This document shows, piece after piece, positions 4,327 to 51,231 of a stretch of DNA of 64,000 nt (positions within the stretch are counted from its first letter, which is position 1; each line of letters begins with the position of its first letter). The notes under the pieces were generated by a model, which did no database searches, was not told the origin of the DNA, and saw nothing but the letters and a program-made list of their open reading frames with translations. Source of the DNA: an uncultured Candidatus Rokubacteria bacterium. GTDB lineage: Bacteria > Methylomirabilota > Methylomirabilia > Rokubacteriales > DASRDR01. The DNA lies in the NCBI GenBank assembly GCA_963805625.1, contig CAWDVE010000016.1, positions 512,001 through 576,000 of the forward strand, written 5' to 3'. The position numbers and the translations under genes are program-made.

Positions 4327-5589
4327 TCAGACTCCCGGGGCCAGGGCGGGGACTCGGGCTGGCGCCCGGAGCGTCAGGGCCACTGCCACCGCACCCGCCC
4401 CGACGAGCGTGCTGGCGAGGTGGAGGCTCCAGTACGTGCCCAGGTGGTCGAAGAGGAATCCGCCGCCGTAGGCGCCGAGACCCATCCCGATGCAGGAGAT
4501 GAAGAAGATCCCCCCGAAGGTCATGCCGACCACCCGCTCGCCGAAGAATTCGCGGGCGACCAGGGCATAGAGGGGCATGGCGCCTCCGTAGGCGACGCCG
4601 AAGACCAGGGCGACGGCGAACAGGGACACGGCTCCGTCGGCGTATAGGTACGTGGAGAGGGTTGCGGCCTGAAGCGCGAGCATGCCCAGGAGCGCAGGCT
4701 TCGCGCCAAGTCGGTCGGCGAGAACGCCGCTCGACAGCCGACCGATGATGCTGGTTGCTCCGGAGAGACCGAGCATCGAGGCCGCGGCCATTTTGGTGAC
4801 GCCCAGGTCCATGGCGTGGGCCACCATGTGAAAGATCGGTCCCGAGTGCGCCGCGCAGCACCCGAAGTGAACGAGGGCCACCCCCCAGAAGGCCGGGTGC
4901 CGGAGCACGTCCGCCGCGGTCATGTCCTCGCCCGGCGGCGCCCGGCGCGCTCCGCTCGACGCGGGCGCCGCGCCATAGCTCCGGAGCCCCCGATCCTCAG
5001 GCTGGTCTGCGAGGTACCGGAGGGCCACACTCCCCACGACCCAGGTGAGTCCGCCGAACACGGCGAAGGTCACCCGCCACCCGAACGCGGTGATGAGGGC
5101 GCGAGCGCTGGGCGGGACGACGAAGATCCCGAGCCCCATGCCGCTCGAGATGATGCCCATGGCGAGTCCGCGCCGCGCGGCGAACCACCGCGTGGCGGTC
5201 GCCGAGAGCGGGACGTAGAACGCGCTCGCGCCGAGAGCCCCGAGGATGCCGAACGCGACGTAGAGCTGCCCGGCCGAGCGGATCTGGCTGGAGACGAGGA
5301 GGGCGGCACCGAGCAGGCCGGAGCCGGCCCCGACGACGCGCCGGGCCCCGATCCGATCGGAGAGGATTCCCGCCACGAGGGAGCCAACCCCGAAGATGAC
5401 CCAGTTGACGAAGGCGACCCCGGAGATCAGGGACCGGGTCCAGCCGAACTCTTCCTCGAGGGGCCGAAGGAACACGGCCAGCGAGAAGATGGTGCCGGTG
5501 CCGACGGCGATGATGGCGACCGACGCCGCGAGGACGACCCAGCCGTAGAAGACGCGGGAGCCGGTCGCGACTCGAACCGGTGCGGCCAC
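4327..5589 (-). CDS. MFS transporter (OFA/MCT-like)
   Basis: FYGWVVL; GILSDRIGARR motif A; RWFAARRGLAMGI; about 12 TM helices. Confidence 0.9.
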   Translation of the reverse strand: MAAPVRVATGSRVFYGWVVLAASVAIIAVGTGTIFSLAVFLRPLEEEFGWTRSLISGVAFVNWVIFGVGSLVAGILSDRIGARRVVGAGSGLLGAALLVSSQIRSAGQLYVAFGILGALGASAFYVPLSATATRWFAARRGLAMGIISSGMGLGIFVVPPSARALITAFGWRVTFAVFGGLTWVVGSVALRYLADQPEDRGLRSYGAAPASSGARRAPPGEDMTAADVLRHPAFWGVALVHFGCCAAHSGPIFHMVAHAMDLGVTKMAAASMLGLSGATSIIGRLSSGVLADRLGAKPALLGMLALQAATLSTYLYADGAVSLFAVALVFGVAYGGAMPLYALVAREFFGERVVGMTFGGIFFISCIGMGLGAYGGGFLFDHLGTYWSLHLASTLVGAGAVAVALTLRAPARVPALAPGV

Positions 5590-45394: not shown

Positions 45395-47254
45395 GTGACC
45401 CGGTATCCCATCGCCGTCCGCCAGCGAGCCCTGCTCATGTTCGTGGCGGCGAACTTCCTCGCCGCCGGTCTGCACGCCCAGCGCTTCCTCTTCGCGGAAG
45501 ACGGGCTGCCGTCCAGCCTGGGGCTCGCGTTCACCGCGCTGGCGTTGCTGGCCCAGGTGGGCCTGGCAACGCTGGCCCTCCATGCCGTGCTCGGCGCGGT
45601 CGCGCTCGTCGACTCCTGGGCGCTCGCCACCCGCTGCGTGGCGGCGCTCGCCTTCACGCTGCTCCAGACCTTCATCTACGTGGACGCGCGGATCTACGGC
45701 TTCTTCAGGTTCCACTTCAACGCCCTCGCGCTGAACGTCCTCCTGACGCCGGGCGGCTTCGAGTCGATGGAGCTTCCGAGCCGGGACATCGCGATGGCGT
45801 GCGTCGGCATCGTGATCCTGCTCGGCCTCGAGCTCCTCGGCTACACGGCCCTGCTCAGGTGGGCCGGATCGGCCACATGGCCGGTCCGGCGTCGCTGGCT
45901 CGCGCTCGTGGTCACGGTCCTGGGGCTCTTCGCGGCCGAGCGGCTGACCTACGCCGCTGGTGACCTCCTCGATATCTCCGGGGTTGTTCGCCAGACGCGC
46001 CTGATCCCGCTCTATGAGCCTCTCCGGCTCCGAGAAGTTCGGCAGCGGCTACGGATCCGGGGCGATGCCGGAGCTCTAACCTATGATCCGAGCGGGAGCG
46101 CTTTGAACTACCCGCGGGTGCCCGTCGTCGGGACGGTCAGGGCGGACCGCCGATGGAACGTCGTGTGGATCCTGGTCGAATCCTGGCGCGCCGACACGTT
46201 CACCGCCGACAATACGCCGAATATCTGGCGGTTCTCCCGCCAGGCGCAGGTGTTTCGTCAGCACCTGAGCGGCGGCAATTCGACACGCTTCGGGATCTTC
46301 TCCATGATCTACGGCCTGCATGGCACGTATTGGTGGCCGTTCCTCGCCGAGGGCCGGGAGCCCGTTCTCATCGCGAAGCTCGCCGAGGCGGGTTACCGCT
46401 TCAGGATCTCGTCGAGCACCTCCCTCGGGTACCCCGAGCTCCGCCGCACTGCGTTCGTCTCCGTGCGGCCCTTCCTCGTCGACCGCCTCCCAGGCGGGAC
46501 CACGGCCGAACGGGACGTCCAGCAGGCGCGTGCGTTCGAGGCGTTCCTGGAGGAAACACCTCGAGAGGAGGCGTTCTTTGGCTTCCTCTTCTTCGGCGCG
46601 CCCCATTTCCCGTTCCTGTTCCCGCCGGAGCACGCGAAGTTCCTGCCGGTCCTGACGAAGCCCACGATCGCGCAGGCCCAGACGCCAGAGGGGGCACGCC
46701 GGATGTTCAACGGCTACCGGAACTCGATCCACCACGTCGACTCGGTGGTCGGGCCGGTCCTGGCGACCCTGGAGCGGCGCGGCTTGCTCGACCGAACGAT
46801 CGTCGTCATCACGGGGGACCACGGCCAGGAGTTCTACGAGCACGGGTTCTTCGGGCACGGCAGCGCGTTCACCCCAGAGCAGACCCGCGTCCCGCTCATC
46901 ATGCGCGTGCCTGGGCTGCCCTTCGGCGAGCACGATCACCTGACGCAGCACCAGGACCTGCCGGCCACGGTGCTAGCGCTCCTCGGAATCGACGACCCAC
47001 CGGAGGGCTACAGCCTCGGCCGGAGCATGCTGGAAGGGAACGGGCGGTCGTATGCGGTCGTGTGCGGCTTCCGGGAGTGCGCGCTCCAGGACTCGGAGGG
47101 CTGGGTGGTCTTCGGGGTGGAGGGCAAGACCTCGCTTTCGCTCGAGGCGCGCGACCGCGACTACGCCGAGATCGACGATTCAGGCCCCGCCGTGAGCCGG
47201 CGCCTCGGCCAGCTGACCGCGATCATGCGGGAGATGCGGCTCTTCGCGCGGTAG
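45395..47254 (+). CDS. YejM/PbgA-like membrane protein with sulfatase-like domain
   Basis: About 5 N-terminal TM helices with FRFHFN; LNYP; HLSGGNSTRFGIFSMIYG; ITGDHGQEF; start uncertain. Confidence 0.8.
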   Translation: MTRYPIAVRQRALLMFVAANFLAAGLHAQRFLFAEDGLPSSLGLAFTALALLAQVGLATLALHAVLGAVALVDSWALATRCVAALAFTLLQTFIYVDARIYGFFRFHFNALALNVLLTPGGFESMELPSRDIAMACVGIVILLGLELLGYTALLRWAGSATWPVRRRWLALVVTVLGLFAAERLTYAAGDLLDISGVVRQTRLIPLYEPLRLREVRQRLRIRGDAGALTYDPSGSALNYPRVPVVGTVRADRRWNVVWILVESWRADTFTADNTPNIWRFSRQAQVFRQHLSGGNSTRFGIFSMIYGLHGTYWWPFLAEGREPVLIAKLAEAGYRFRISSSTSLGYPELRRTAFVSVRPFLVDRLPGGTTAERDVQQARAFEAFLEETPREEAFFGFLFFGAPHFPFLFPPEHAKFLPVLTKPTIAQAQTPEGARRMFNGYRNSIHHVDSVVGPVLATLERRGLLDRTIVVITGDHGQEFYEHGFFGHGSAFTPEQTRVPLIMRVPGLPFGEHDHLTQHQDLPATVLALLGIDDPPEGYSLGRSMLEGNGRSYAVVCGFRECALQDSEGWVVFGVEGKTSLSLEARDRDYAEIDDSGPAVSRRLGQLTAIMREMRLFAR

Positions 47255-47367
47255 GCCCGTAGGGAGGCGTCCCCGCCTCTGCGCCCGGTCGCCCGGCCGA
47301 GCTCGACTCCTGACGGTCCGCAGTGGTCGCTGGCCGGTCGCTGGACCGTCTGAACCACCTGCCGTGC

Positions 47368-47469
47368 CCTGTCAACTGAATGACATCTTTGTCATGTTTC
47401 TTCTTGACAGGCCCTTTCACTCAGAGCTACGCTTTCAGCGCACGCTGAAAATGCTCGGACAAGTGAAAG
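47368..47469 (+). promoter_or_regulatory. Sigma-70 promoter within nested inverted repeats upstream of the AbiEi-like gene
   Basis: TTGACA(47404)-N18-TACGCT(47428); IRs CCTGTCAA/TTGACAGG, ATGACA/TGTCAT, TTTCAGCG/CGCTGAAA, CTTTCACT/AGTGAAAG. Confidence 0.75.
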
Positions 47470-47470
47470 T

Positions 47471-48523
47471 ATGGTTCGGATCGTCGAATTCAAGAAGGAA
47501 GCCGCGGAGCGGCTCCGCGGGTTATTTCCGCAAGTCGCGGAATGGCAGGAGTCTTTAGATGCAACCGTCGGAGACCAGACGGTGGATGTACTCGTCCGGT
47601 TCAAGATGGGGCAGGCGCAGGAGACCAAGACTCTGATCTGTGAGATCCGCTCCCGGGGCGAGCCCCGGTATCTTCGAGAGGCCATCACCCGACTTCGCGA
47701 GCTCCGGCCGCATCTGCCGGGGGCTTATCCGATCGTTGCTGCTCCCTACGTAACCCCACAGTCGGCAGCGCTCGTCAGGAGAAATAACTGTGGTTACTTA
47801 GATCTTGCTGGCAACTGCTATATCGCCTTTGACAACGTCCTGATCCAGAAGGAGGGGCGGCCCAACACCGGGCTAGTTCGCCGCCCGCTCAAGACCCTCT
47901 TCGCTCCCCGCGCGACGCGGGTTGTGCGGGCCCTTCTGGTGGAGCGGGACCGGGCCTGGCGCCTGGACGAGCTGGGGCGCGCCGTCGGCGTGAGCCTCGG
48001 CCATGCCCACAACGTGATCAAGCGACTCGAGGAGCTCGACTGGGTCGAGCGGGGTCGGGACGGGCTCTACCGGCTGCCTCGTCCGGGCGAGCTGCTCGAC
48101 GCCTGGCGCGACGCGTACAGCTACCGCGTCAATGGGCTCAGCGCCTTCGTCTCGCCCGCTGGAGACAAGCGCCGGGTCATGGAAGCCCTCACCCGGCACG
48201 CGACCGAGCTTGGCATGAGCTACGCGTTCACCCTCCACGCGGGGACGTCCCTGATCGGGCCGCACACGCGGGTCTCGGCCGTGCACTGCTACGTGAGCGG
48301 CGACATCGAGGCGCTGGCCCGGATCCTGGGGCTCCAGCCGGTGGAGGGCGAAGGATCCGTCTATCTCATGACCCCGTACGACCCGGGCGTCTTCTACGCG
48401 CCCGTGATCAAGGGGGGATTCCGGGTGGTCAGTCTCCCGCAGCTCTACGTGGACCTCCATAGCCACGAGCGGCGCGGGCGCGAGCAGGCGGAGAAGCTCC
48501 GTCGTGACGCGATGGGGTTCTAA
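47471..48523 (+). CDS. Type IV TA AbiEi-family antitoxin-like protein (wHTH plus AbiEi C-terminal domain)
   Basis: GYLDLAGNC; LFAPRATRVVRALL; ELGRAVGVSLG HTH; LLDAW; VVSLPQLYVDL...RGREQAE. Confidence 0.75.
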   Translation: MVRIVEFKKEAAERLRGLFPQVAEWQESLDATVGDQTVDVLVRFKMGQAQETKTLICEIRSRGEPRYLREAITRLRELRPHLPGAYPIVAAPYVTPQSAALVRRNNCGYLDLAGNCYIAFDNVLIQKEGRPNTGLVRRPLKTLFAPRATRVVRALLVERDRAWRLDELGRAVGVSLGHAHNVIKRLEELDWVERGRDGLYRLPRPGELLDAWRDAYSYRVNGLSAFVSPAGDKRRVMEALTRHATELGMSYAFTLHAGTSLIGPHTRVSAVHCYVSGDIEALARILGLQPVEGEGSVYLMTPYDPGVFYAPVIKGGFRVVSLPQLYVDLHSHERRGREQAEKLRRDAMGF

Positions 48524-48556
48524 CCGCGCTCACGGCGACGGAAGGAGGTGAACACG

Positions 48557-48592
48557 ATGGCGAAGAAGAAGGCGGCGAAGAAGAAGAAGTAG
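48557..48592 (+). CDS. Lysine-rich micropeptide MAKKKAAKKKK, copy 1
   Basis: AAGGAGGTGA Shine-Dalgarno directly upstream of the ATG; 11 codons plus TAG; duplicated 110 nt downstream. Confidence 0.7.
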   Translation: MAKKKAAKKKK

Positions 48593-48666
48593 TGTCGGAG
48601 GTGTCGCTCGAAGGGGGTGCAGCCCCTTCGCGGGACCGAAACCAAAATGAAGGGAGGTGATCATCA

Positions 48667-48702
48667 ATGGCGAAGAAGAAGGCCGCGAAGAAGAAGAAGT
48701 AG
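48667..48702 (+). CDS. Lysine-rich micropeptide MAKKKAAKKKK, copy 2
   Basis: GGAGGTGA SD; identical peptide; single synonymous change (GCG to GCC). Confidence 0.7.
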   Translation: MAKKKAAKKKK

Positions 48703-48761
48703 TGTGTGTGATCGGGTCAGGGGACGATGCCAGCCCTGATCCAGTGTGACTTGTCAGCGCA

Positions 48762-48794
48762 GGCCGCCGGGGGCGACTGGCACCCCCGGCGGCC
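48762..48794. terminator. GC-rich hairpin between the convergent micropeptide cassette and rpmB
   Basis: 12-bp perfect stem GGCCGCCGGGGG / CCCCCGGCGGCC; no clear U-tract. Confidence 0.6.
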
Positions 48795-48799
48795 GGTCC

Positions 48800-48991
48800 T
48801 CAGACGGCCTTGATGACCTTGCCCCCTCGCAGGCAGCGCGTGCAGACGCGGACCCGCTTGGCTCGGCCCCTCACGACCGCCCGCATCGATACCAGGTTCG
48901 GCAACCACCGGCGCGCGGAGACGTTGTGCGCGTGGCTGATCTGGTTGCCCACGACCGGACCCTTCCCACAGACATCACAGCGCTGGGCCAT
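48800..48991 (-). CDS. rpmB: 50S ribosomal protein L28 (zinc-ribbon form)
   Basis: MAQRCDVCGKGPVVGNQISHAHN...RRWLPNL...VCTRCLR. Confidence 0.96.
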   Translation of the reverse strand: MAQRCDVCGKGPVVGNQISHAHNVSARRWLPNLVSMRAVVRGRAKRVRVCTRCLRGGKVIKAV

Positions 48992-49137
48992 GCTTCTGGA
49001 CTCCTCGGGAGAGATGGGGCCCCGGCGGCTCCCCGGTCCCGGAACGGGCCGGCTTGCCGCCGAGCAACGCACTTCTATACCATGGGGCTCGAGGTGAGAC
49101 AAGCCTGGCACCTCGAGCCCGCGCGGTCGTCCCTTCC

Positions 49138-51231
49138 GTGAACCCGGCCGCCAAGGCGCCCGCCGGCCTCGACACCCTCCTCCAGTACCTCAAGGGTGTG
49201 GGGCCCCAGCGCGCCCGCCTGCTCGAGCGGCTGGGGCTCGTGACGGTCCGGGATGCGTTGAACCACTTTCCCCGGGACTACCAGGACCGCCGGGAGTTCG
49301 TGCCCTTCCACAAGCTCCCCCTCGGGGGGATGGGCGTGGTCCAGGGGACCGTCTTCGGCGTAGCCCCGCCCCGCCGCGGCTCCCGGGCGCCGGTCCAGGT
49401 GACCTTCCGCGACCAGACGGGCTACTTCACCGCGCTCTGGTTCGGGCGGGGCTTCCTCGCGCAGGTCTTCAAGCGGGACCAGCGGGTCGTCCTCTACGGC
49501 AAGAAGGCCCTCACTAAGGACCGCCGCGTCGTTCTGGAGGGCCCCGATTTCGAGATCGTGGAAGAGGACGACCTGGCGTCGATCCACATGGGCCGGGTGG
49601 TTCCGGTCTATCCGCTCACGGAGGGGTTGTTCCAGCGCCCGTTGCGGTCGCTCCTCCACCGCCTGGTCGAGGCTCATGCCGGGGAAGCCCCCGACATCCT
49701 GCCGGACGAGCTCTGCCGCCGGCGGAATCTCCTGCCGGCGGCCGCGGCGTACCGGAGCGTGCACTTTCCCGAGCAACTGGACGACGTGGAGGCGGCCCGA
49801 CGGCGCTTCGCCTTCGAGGACTTCTTCGTGCTGCAGGTTGGCCTGACCCTCCGGCGCCGGCGGCAGGCCCGCGAGCCCGGACGTTCGCTCGCGCCTCCGG
49901 GTGCGCTGGTGGCGCAGCTTCTTCGCCAGCTGCCGTTCGCCCTCACGTCTGCCCAGGAGCGCGTCTGGTCCGAGATCCGGTCGGACCTCGCGCGCCCGGT
50001 GCCCATGAACCGGCTCCTGCAAGGGGACGTGGGATCCGGCAAGACGATCGTCGCGGTGATGGCGCTCCTCACGGCCGTGGAGGCGGGATGCCAGGCAGTG
50101 CTCATGGCCCCGACCGAGATTCTCGCCGAGCAGCACGTCCGGACGCTGCGGAGCCTCGTCGAGCCGCTCGGGCTCTCGGTCGCGTGGCTCTCCGCCGGCC
50201 AGCGCGCCCGGGAGCGCCAGGCCGCACTGGAAGCCCTCCGGAGCGGCGCTGCCGCCATCGGCGTGGGGACGCACGCGCTGATCCAGGACGCGGTCGAGCT
50301 CCAGCGCCTCGGTTTGGCTGTCGTGGACGAGCAGCACCGCTTTGGCGTCATCCAGCGCGCGTCGCTTCGCGGGAAAGGGGAGCACCCGCACGTGCTCGTC
50401 ATGACGGCGACGCCGATCCCGCGAACGCTCGCGCTGACGCTCTACGGCGACCTCGACGTCTCCGTCCTCGACCAGCTGCCGCCCGGGCGGACACCCATCC
50501 GGACCGAGTCGCGCTACGAATCGGCCCGGGAGAAGATCTACGACTTCATCCGAAGCGAGCTCCGGGCCGGGCGTCAGGCGTACGTGGTTTGCCCGCTCAT
50601 CGAGGAGACGGAGGCGAGGGACCTCAAGGCGGCGACGGAGATGGCCGAGCGCCTCCAGGCGGGTCCCTTCCGGGACTTCCGGGTCGGCCTGATCCACGGC
50701 CGGCTCGCGTTCGACGCGAAGGACGCGGTGATGCGTGCGTTCAAGGCGGGGGAGATCGATGTCCTGGTCGCCACGACGGTGATCGAGGTCGGGATCGATG
50801 TGCCCAACGCCTCGGTGATGCTCGTCGAGCACGCCGAGCGGTTCGGCCTGGCGCAGCTCCACCAGCTCCGCGGCCGCGTGGGTCGCGGGGCGGCCAAGTC
50901 CTATTGCATCCTACTGGCGAGCGAGCCCATGTCCGAGGACGCCCGGCAGCGACTGGACGCCATGGTCAAGACCCAGGATGGGTTCCGCCTCGCGGAGGTC
51001 GATCTCGAGATCCGTGGGCCGGGGGAGTTCTTCGGAACGCGCCAGTCGGGTCTCCCTGAGTTCCGGACCGCCGGCCTCGTTACCCACGCCCGGCTCCTCG
51101 AGGAGGCGCGGCAGGATGCCGCCCAGCTGGTGGGGCGTGATCCCGGGCTCCGCCTCCCGGAGCACCGGGCCCTGCATGAGGCGCTCGTCGCCCGCTGGCG
51201 GGAGCGTCTCGAGCTGGCGTCGATCGGGTAG
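49138..51231 (+). CDS. recG: ATP-dependent DNA helicase RecG
   Basis: LKGVGP; RLLQGDVGSGKT; DEQHRFG; MTATPIPRTL; QLHQLRGRVGRG; start uncertain. Confidence 0.96.
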   Translation: MNPAAKAPAGLDTLLQYLKGVGPQRARLLERLGLVTVRDALNHFPRDYQDRREFVPFHKLPLGGMGVVQGTVFGVAPPRRGSRAPVQVTFRDQTGYFTALWFGRGFLAQVFKRDQRVVLYGKKALTKDRRVVLEGPDFEIVEEDDLASIHMGRVVPVYPLTEGLFQRPLRSLLHRLVEAHAGEAPDILPDELCRRRNLLPAAAAYRSVHFPEQLDDVEAARRRFAFEDFFVLQVGLTLRRRRQAREPGRSLAPPGALVAQLLRQLPFALTSAQERVWSEIRSDLARPVPMNRLLQGDVGSGKTIVAVMALLTAVEAGCQAVLMAPTEILAEQHVRTLRSLVEPLGLSVAWLSAGQRARERQAALEALRSGAAAIGVGTHALIQDAVELQRLGLAVVDEQHRFGVIQRASLRGKGEHPHVLVMTATPIPRTLALTLYGDLDVSVLDQLPPGRTPIRTESRYESAREKIYDFIRSELRAGRQAYVVCPLIEETEARDLKAATEMAERLQAGPFRDFRVGLIHGRLAFDAKDAVMRAFKAGEIDVLVATTVIEVGIDVPNASVMLVEHAERFGLAQLHQLRGRVGRGAAKSYCILLASEPMSEDARQRLDAMVKTQDGFRLAEVDLEIRGPGEFFGTRQSGLPEFRTAGLVTHARLLEEARQDAAQLVGRDPGLRLPEHRALHEALVARWRERLELASIG

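Follow-up and report, generated by a model that had tools for sequence, protein, structure and literature searches.

A strongly conserved and probably translated cassette of polylysine micro-genes in a probably domesticated AbiE-type toxin-antitoxin operon of Rokubacteriales

The window, a stretch of 64,000 nucleotides from an uncultured Candidatus Rokubacteria genome, carries two tandem genes of 11 codons each behind an orphan AbiEi-family regulator. Judged from sequence comparison, they are a strongly conserved, probably translated micro-gene cassette in what is probably a domesticated toxin-antitoxin (TA) operon. The comparisons establish the structure of the cassette, its conservation in the order Rokubacteriales, selection on the charge of its peptides, loss of the toxin, a palindrome in front of the operon, a lost lysine in the regulator and a second locus in the genome. 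For the role of the operon, we hold with moderate confidence that it is a former TA operon in which the micro-genes replaced the toxin, that they supply a bulk housekeeping polycation and that the AbiEi-family protein is a toxin-less autorepressor. The features of the locus, in window coordinates, are:

47404..47433, plus strand: predicted sigma-70-type promoter (TTGACA, 18 nt, TACGCT), read from the sequence
47415..47468, no strand assigned: predicted operator region, from palindrome conservation
47471..48523, plus strand: orphan AbiEi-family protein of 350 aa, predicted autorepressor, from Pfam, structure model and motifs
47585-47650, plus strand: nuclease-motif segment, regulator residues 39-60, from motif comparison
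48542..48551, plus strand: Shine-Dalgarno (SD) site 1 (AAGGAGGTGA), 10-nt complement of the 16S 3' end
48557..48592, plus strand: micro-gene 1, MAKKKAAKKKK, from sequence and order-wide conservation
48609..48630, plus strand: hairpin 1, whose conserved loop is GGTGCAGCC here and GGTGGCGGCC in the sister family, from folds and loop comparison
48653..48662, plus strand: SD site 2 (GGAGGTGATC), 10-nt complement of the 16S 3' end
48667..48702, plus strand: micro-gene 2, MAKKKAAKKKK, from sequence and order-wide conservation
48714..48742, plus strand: hairpin 2, from folds, with arms variable among relatives
48762..48794, no strand assigned: 12-bp G+C hairpin between cassette and rpmB, predicted shared transcript end, from the fold
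48800..48991, minus strand: rpmB (bL28; PF00830, E 3e-21), the convergent neighbour that marks the locus, outside the unit

Re-reading of the window sequence places the two ATG codons at 48557 and 48667, 110 nt apart. Both ORFs (11 codons) encode MAKKKAAKKKK, end in TAG followed by TGT, and differ from each other at a single synonymous site (GCG/GCC). The SD core GGAGGTGA is found at 48544-48551 and 48653-48660, and at each site it extends to a 10-nt perfect complement of the 3' end of the genome's own 16S rRNA. The hairpins at 48609-48630 and 48714-48742 are present in both the MFE and the centroid folds. All of these elements are as the preliminary description of the locus gave them. It had also placed ORF1 33 nt past the stop of the AbiEi-like gene (48523) with no terminator between, and the terminator scan indeed finds no terminator-like site there. 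The three GGAGG sites that it counted are present, but the third (48597) is not conserved among the relatives.

The loop pattern of hairpin 1 (GGTGCAGCC or GGTGGCGGCC) is kept in 81 of the 90 order loci compared (L236-L325), where it nearly always closes a G+C stem whose arms vary. We regard this conserved-loop hairpin behind one micro-gene as a candidate protein-binding or stabilising element. The start position of the hairpin at 48762-48794 is kept within the genus; it has no T run and the terminator scan makes no call there. Folding of the whole 277-nt stretch is no better than that of shuffled sequences (z -1.39). Rfam gave one chance-level match over 47200-49200, outside the cassette, and none above chance, and no DNA match to the cassette was found in annotated phages. 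Sites combining GGAGGTGA with a start codon number 65 in the 7.27 Mb genome, three of which are micro-genes. Likewise, a genome scan for short Lys-rich ORFs with an SD returned exactly three, the two in the window and one stand-alone copy. Separately, a 45-aa Lys-rich ORF lies on the minus strand of contig C25 near 90763, within an A+T-rich stretch that, in a genome of 69% G+C, may come from foreign DNA or from contamination.

Relatives were sampled by anchoring on the AbiEi-like gene, so that the peptide itself played no part in their selection. The 90 anchored order loci consist of the 30 best-scoring ones, including this genome, and 60 chosen from the listed places, a choice that favoured genomes where the peptide pattern had failed. 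SD-led Lys-rich micro-genes are found behind the regulator in 90 of 90 loci, two of them in 77, one in 10 and three in 3, although the genomes are related and such counts are non-independent samples. The convergent rpmB gene follows in 88 of the 90 loci, and the remaining two reach a contig edge. Conservation in relatives and the possibility of an assembly artefact had both been set as tests beforehand. The first is borne out, with one to three copies per locus and with SD and frame kept. The second is excluded, since the tandem pair is found in all 14 examined loci of the genus (L236-L249, this genome among them) with diverged spacers. Nor is the pair a product of chance, because a reversed-pattern control gave 0 matches in 251 genomes against 154 in the forward direction. 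With a strict sequence pattern, a match was obtained in 14 of 14 further genus members; with a looser one, 151 of 182 order genomes matched, compared with 2 of 68 from the remainder of the phylum. Several genera have a longer first micro-gene, of 20-25 residues, which resembles an H1 tail (L261, L263-L265, L276-L278, L281, L296, L297, L304, L305, L309, L313, L314, L324 and L325). This form links the 11-mer to longer Lys/Ala proteins.

We scanned the 90 intergenic regions for any SD-led ORF without a composition filter. This gave 174 ORFs, 173 of them Lys-rich; the one remaining ORF, at L258, reflects an alternative start further upstream. The 74 distinct peptides are 10-25 aa long. The composition of the 173 Lys-rich ORFs is narrow (n=2118 residues: K 1431, A 449, R 85, T 64, G 53, V 14, S 12, P 7, H 3), with K and A making up 1880 residues and with no acidic, amide or aromatic residue and no Leu, Ile, Met or Cys. 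The charge-losing single-step neighbours of AAG (GAG, CAG, AAC and AAT) do not occur once, and neither does GAA. The 85 Arg codons are 58 CGN and 27 AGR, the starts ATG, GTG and TTG interchange, and so do the stops TAG and TAA. The earlier suggestion of selection on SD and reading frame thus agrees with what the unfiltered scan returned. Length changes that preserve the frame were not counted as evidence, because triplet slippage produces the same. This loose sequence rule, with variable length, K/R swaps and one to three copies, fits a peptide that may act by charge alone.

The composition also bears on the proposal, made in the preliminary description, that the RNA is the effector. It could then be an (AAG)n or GGA sponge, or serve as a decoy on which 30S subunits are parked, and the peptide would be a by-product. 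AAG does account for 1347 of the 1431 Lys codons, and the loop of hairpin 1 is widely kept. However, AAG is equally dominant over the whole genome (21604 against 1301 AAA), so that its dominance in the micro-genes follows from the general codon usage of this genome. Hfq (PF17209) and CsrA (PF02599) were not found in this 99.91% complete genome, and both were detected in control genomes; Rfam adds nothing above chance. The GGA and A-R-N motifs are not kept independently of coding, and an A-rich RNA motif would predict the opposite of what is seen, namely acceptance of CGN Arg codons and complete lack of GAG and GAA. Since the changes from Lys to Arg are mostly to CGN, and Hfq and CsrA were not found, selection acts on charge and not on an (AAG)n RNA, and an RNA effector is hardly probable at all.

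Codon and stop usage also set the micro-genes apart from the rest of the genome. TGA ends none of the 173 micro-genes against 2309 of 3443 (67%) long ORFs of this genome, and TAA ends 68 of 173 (39%) against 165 of 3443 (5%). In low-GC genomes the peptides are encoded with AAG 82:AAA 68 (55% AAG) against 221:863 (20%) in neighbouring ORFs, in a sample of 19 ORFs of which one is probably spurious and one was counted at two starts. This preference fits avoidance of ribosome sliding on poly-A (PMC4363877). Together, the SD sites, the stop bias and the AAG preference are strong indirect signs of translation, and signs of high expression as well.

A gene product that is short, very basic, near-universal in the order and led by a top-rank SD might also be a tiny ribosomal or ribosome-associated protein that fills an rRNA pocket. 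The proteins bS22, bTHX, bL37 and eL41 have about 25-33 aa and fixed Arg-rich sequences with position-specific residues. The micro-peptides share with them that they are very short, very basic and easily missed by gene callers. Furthermore, the stops of the ribosomal-protein cluster lean the same way (TAG+TAA in 20 of 33), and rpmB adjoins the cassette. The micro-peptides differ from these proteins in that their length and sequence drift and their copy number varies. Across the 74 sequences of 10-25 aa there is no position-specific residue beyond K/A, and the copies per genome reach three or more. Moreover, rpmB is convergent, the neighbours at other loci are not ribosomal genes, and the occurrence outside the order is patchy. 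We consider a ribosomal protein unlikely.

The regulator in front of the cassette is predicted to consist of an N-terminal PD-(D/E)XK nuclease-like fold, a winged helix-turn-helix (HTH) and an AbiEi_2 C-terminal domain. Pfam matches AbiEi_2 (PF09952) with E 3.7e-4, at 21.3 bits against a cut-off of 21, and HTH_IclR with E 1.9e-4; no NCBIfam family was found at 1e-8. The structure model has a pLDDT of 95, and a single-sequence fold gave 46. The fold search ranks EndoMS/NucS and MspJI best, with some 110 aligned columns and E from 3e-4 to 1e-3, and a profile search against solved structures gave weak HTH matches. The protein has 3,374 relatives. Named public records labelled Rokubacteria or Methylomirabilota hold the regulator at 50-90% identity, and plasmid homologues at 31-38% identity are annotated as AbiEi antitoxin. 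In the order, 173 of 182 genomes carry the gene, against 10 of 68 others in the phylum, and on these comparisons it belongs to the core of the order, as one copy in a syntenic position.

Several of the plasmid homologues have an AbiEii/AbiGii gene abutting, and in five of five homologues from other orders of the phylum a toxin follows the antitoxin and no micro-gene is present. Among the 90 order loci the toxin query matches none, and neither PF08843, the toxin family, nor six toxin protein queries found a toxin in this genome. PF08843 is found in 43 of 97 order genomes and in 0 of 8 in this genus; since it detects this toxin subtype only weakly, the negative result in this genome rests mainly on the six protein queries. 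Compared with these operons, the micro-genes sit where homologous operons hold a nucleotidyltransferase toxin, as the preliminary description had expected. In a quick, unrooted tree of 50 rows, the 21 order sequences fall on one side of a branch with support 100, which may be compatible with a single loss of the toxin.

The nuclease motif of the regulator has changed as well. D39, E58 and K60 are kept in 90, 87 and 74 of 104 other homologues, while the catalytic K60 is found in 0 of 57 order loci and in 4 of 5 toxin-linked loci. The regulator retains conserved C-terminal residues, on account of which it may still have a partner or an activity beyond repression. As a side observation, toxin-linked AbiEi_2 homologues mostly keep the N-terminal PD-(D/E)XK-like D...ExK, so these antitoxins may be nucleases.

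A TTGACA box with a TAnnnT hexamer precedes the regulator in 30 of the 30 order loci inspected, and in this genome a consensus promoter scan finds 0 sites reaching threshold at the operon promoter. The predicted operator palindrome TTTCAGC-N4-GCTGAAA lies at 47433-47450, flanked by half-sites TTTCAC (47415-47420) and GTGAAA (47463-47468). The palindrome or a one-base variant is found in 30 of 30 order loci, and the same or a related palindrome precedes the five toxin-linked homologues. AbiEi and Rv2827c are described as repressing their own operons via inverted repeats (PMC7319586); by analogy with this family the regulator would bind the palindrome. A wider regulon was considered and rejected, as TTTCA-N8-TGAAA occurs once in the genome. 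An internal promoter in the 3' end of the regulator gene was also dismissed, with no fixed synonymous positions and no consensus site found there.

In 21 RNA-labelled runs a small share of the stretch is found. Contigs of X1, X3 and X5, three of the four runs examined, cover the cassette including its unique spacer, and the X3 pieces over 48577-48697 show 0-8 letter differences; such contigs show presence, and not strand, ends, level or co-transcription, and DNA may be present in the libraries. No contig bridging regulator and micro-gene is among those listed, and cover is zero at 47200-47412 and 49188-49300. The summed contig depth is highest over the cassette, at 5450 in X5, where most bins of the regulator and rpmB have 8-56, and at 338 in X3, against 2-6. 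We set this peak aside as evidence of expression, because genes cannot be ranked by the depth of contigs, the same stretch had served to find the runs and a low-complexity ORF attracts other organisms.

The third copy in the genome stands alone on contig C10 (L001:6540-6720), where an ORF at 712627 with a GTG start encodes MAKKKATKKKK. It has a TTGACA-18-TAGGAT promoter-like site, a 10-nt SD and a strong hairpin, and the operator palindrome is absent. On one side of it lies a divergent gene for a B12 radical SAM/DUF4070 protein, on the other a gene for an EamA transporter. This arrangement recurs in both families of the order, with a promoter-like site before the ORF in 31 of 31 order loci examined, some of which are one place counted twice.

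In both families most stand-alone loci have the divergent B12 radical SAM gene as a neighbour, and EamA is found beside 18 of the 31. The peptide might on this ground be a precursor that is modified by the radical SAM protein, or a leader that controls the transporter downstream. Between the two families, however, the radical SAM proteins share only about 25% identity, no EamA gene was found at 13 of the 31 loci, and neither gene is present at the window locus or, by the families matched, at the loci of other phyla. The peptides also have no leader/core layout. At the window locus an attenuator leader would lack a co-oriented downstream gene, as the next gene is rpmB, convergent in 88 of 90 loci, and for the same reason the lysine sensor put forward in the preliminary description is not supported there. 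A precursor or leader is very improbable.

A scan of species genomes gave at least 120 loci. Among the 120 listed, 30 of 30 Rokubacteria-labelled loci and 51 of 90 others hold an ORF that is in frame, no longer than 20 residues and closed by KKK. The labels of the other records include Woesearchaeota, Pacearchaeota, Patescibacteria, Acidobacteriota, Planctomycetota, Brocadiales, Eisenbacteria, Burkholderiales and Dactylosporangium, among others. In Dactylosporangium (L072, L094), a cultured carrier, the related peptide includes Asp and is possibly not a homologue. Two of the 51 (L169 and L181) carry the Rokubacteriales regulator and cassette under other-phylum labels and may be mis-binned contigs of the order. 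Such an ORF is also found in 18 of 52 viral loci. In even samples of other phyla, with the centre genomes excluded, the strict pattern is rare and matched 5 of 120 genomes in one DPANN phylum and 2 of 120 in Acidobacteriota, all in frame, against 0 in the control. The neighbours of the other-phylum micro-genes are varied and include no AbiEi-like gene. Similar micro-genes thus have a patchy distribution among other bacteria, among DPANN archaea and on viral contigs, and at such low complexity their homology across phyla is unprovable.

Two further groups of ORFs were noticed. Near-pure polylysine ORFs lie directly behind serS in L078, L087 and L133 (Patescibacteria or Nanoarchaeota labels), and those of L078 and L133 also precede secA. 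A 17-residue Lys-rich ORF with acidic residues recurs in the viral contigs L196, L197, L202, L206, L208 and L219, with a terminator-like hairpin and, in the two loci checked (L196 and L206), behind a Rad50/SbcC-like gene. The latter is probably a different family.

The position of the micro-genes behind an intact operator could suggest a replacement toxin: upon derepression, very fast initiation on the short Lys ORFs would tie up tRNA-Lys in peptidyl-tRNA, or translation would be poisoned by the polycation, leading to dormancy or abortive infection. Toxic minigenes are shorter than these micro-genes, which counts against it, and so do the tolerated changes from K to R and the environmental RNA-library contigs that cover the locus. 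The locus is moreover a core one (173 of 182 genomes, single-copy, syntenic), unlike the patchy AbiEii genes (43 of 97). The stand-alone copies have a near-consensus promoter and no operator, and this stand-alone gene, together with the other-phylum copies without an AbiEi-like neighbour, disfavours a dedicated toxin. In its favour, minigenes can inhibit translation through build-up of peptidyl-tRNA (PMC8012679), and the toxin AbiEii is likewise directed against translation (bioRxiv 2026.01.19.700257). On balance a replacement toxin is distinctly doubtful. The micro-genes resemble the lambda bar minigenes in being very short ORFs behind a strong SD (PMC8012679), and differ in being conserved chromosomal core genes selected for positive charge.

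The operon resembles AbiE (type IV/VII TA) and the M. tuberculosis pair Rv2827c-Rv2826c, which have the antitoxin-family gene first, inverted repeats over the promoter and the second gene directly behind (PMC7319586; bioRxiv 2026.01.19.700257). Homologues of the regulator over its full length carry the AbiEi annotation and adjoin AbiEii/AbiGii genes. The winged HTH and AbiEi C-terminal domain of the AbiE antitoxin are also found in the Rokubacteriales regulator. In contrast to AbiE, the DUF1814/AbiEii nucleotidyltransferase directly behind the antitoxin is absent and 1-3 polylysine micro-genes take its place, the locus is single-copy core, and the regulator has an extra N-terminal nuclease-like domain whose catalytic Lys is found in 0 of 57 order loci against 74 of 104 other homologues. 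At the peptide level, AlgP of Pseudomonas (PMC9239181) and Hc2 of Chlamydia (PMC2848022) are comparable in their Lys/Ala low complexity, with no fold expected and a variable repeat number. The tail of AlgP has been linked to DNA binding and to the spacing of polyphosphate granules (PMC9239181). AlgP carries a 154-aa KPAA region on a folded domain (PMC9239181) and Hc2 has 165-237 aa (PMC2848022), whereas the micro-peptides are free and have 10-25 residues. Unlike H1-like proteins, they are about two-thirds Lys with Pro at 7 of 2118 residues, and have no Pro-containing repeat of more than 100 aa. In these comparisons the cassette is H1-tail-like and AbiE-descended, yet it lacks a defining feature of each family tested.

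Under the preferred reading of a former TA operon that now supplies a housekeeping polycation, a single mRNA would begin at the promoter, span the regulator and micro-genes and end at the hairpin that faces rpmB. Its main product would be the peptides, as the regulator has no evident SD and the micro-genes each have a near-perfect one. The peptide has a net charge of about +7, no fold and no export signal. Its charge alone would let it bind polyanions, with no preference for particular sequences; its composition points to DNA, RNA or polyphosphate as ligands, in the manner of a free histone-H1 tail or a polyamine. The dose would grow with additional micro-gene copies and be limited by autorepression, and the stand-alone copy would provide a level independent of the regulator. 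The highly expressed polycation first proposed for this locus is retained as the best reading, to which we give about an even chance. A spermidine-synthase-family gene is present in the genome (E 4e-43), so the peptides do not simply fill in for a missing polyamine pathway, and the idea of polyamine replacement was rejected.

More tentatively, and with some doubt, there may be a hidden class of ribosome-made polylysines of about 10 residues in bacteria, DPANN archaea and some viruses, acting as gene-encoded polyamines or free H1 tails. At the root of Rokubacteriales a TA operon would then have been domesticated to set their dose and its toxin swapped for the micro-genes, with the nuclease-dead antitoxin as a homeostat and with a rise of the polycation on loss of the repressor.

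The exact peptide was found in no paper in a search of open full text. Small-ORF and antimicrobial-peptide catalogues may list such sequences without comment. In open full text we found no literature on a lysine-rich small protein in Rokubacteria or on an AbiEi toxin swap, and none of the papers found on AbiEi and orphans evidently deals with replacement of the toxin by polylysine.

The micro-genes are invisible to gene callers. If they are translated, their products are among the shortest conserved stand-alone gene products of prokaryotes, fixed in a whole soil order. The locus would also be a clear case of a TA module that took on a core regulatory role and whose ancestral state can still be seen in sister lineages. 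As the peptide is trivial to synthesise or express, its function is directly testable. If the proposed reading is true, cells encode a polyamine-like cation directly, which would bear on the nucleoid, the ribosome and polyphosphate chemistry in uncultured lineages.
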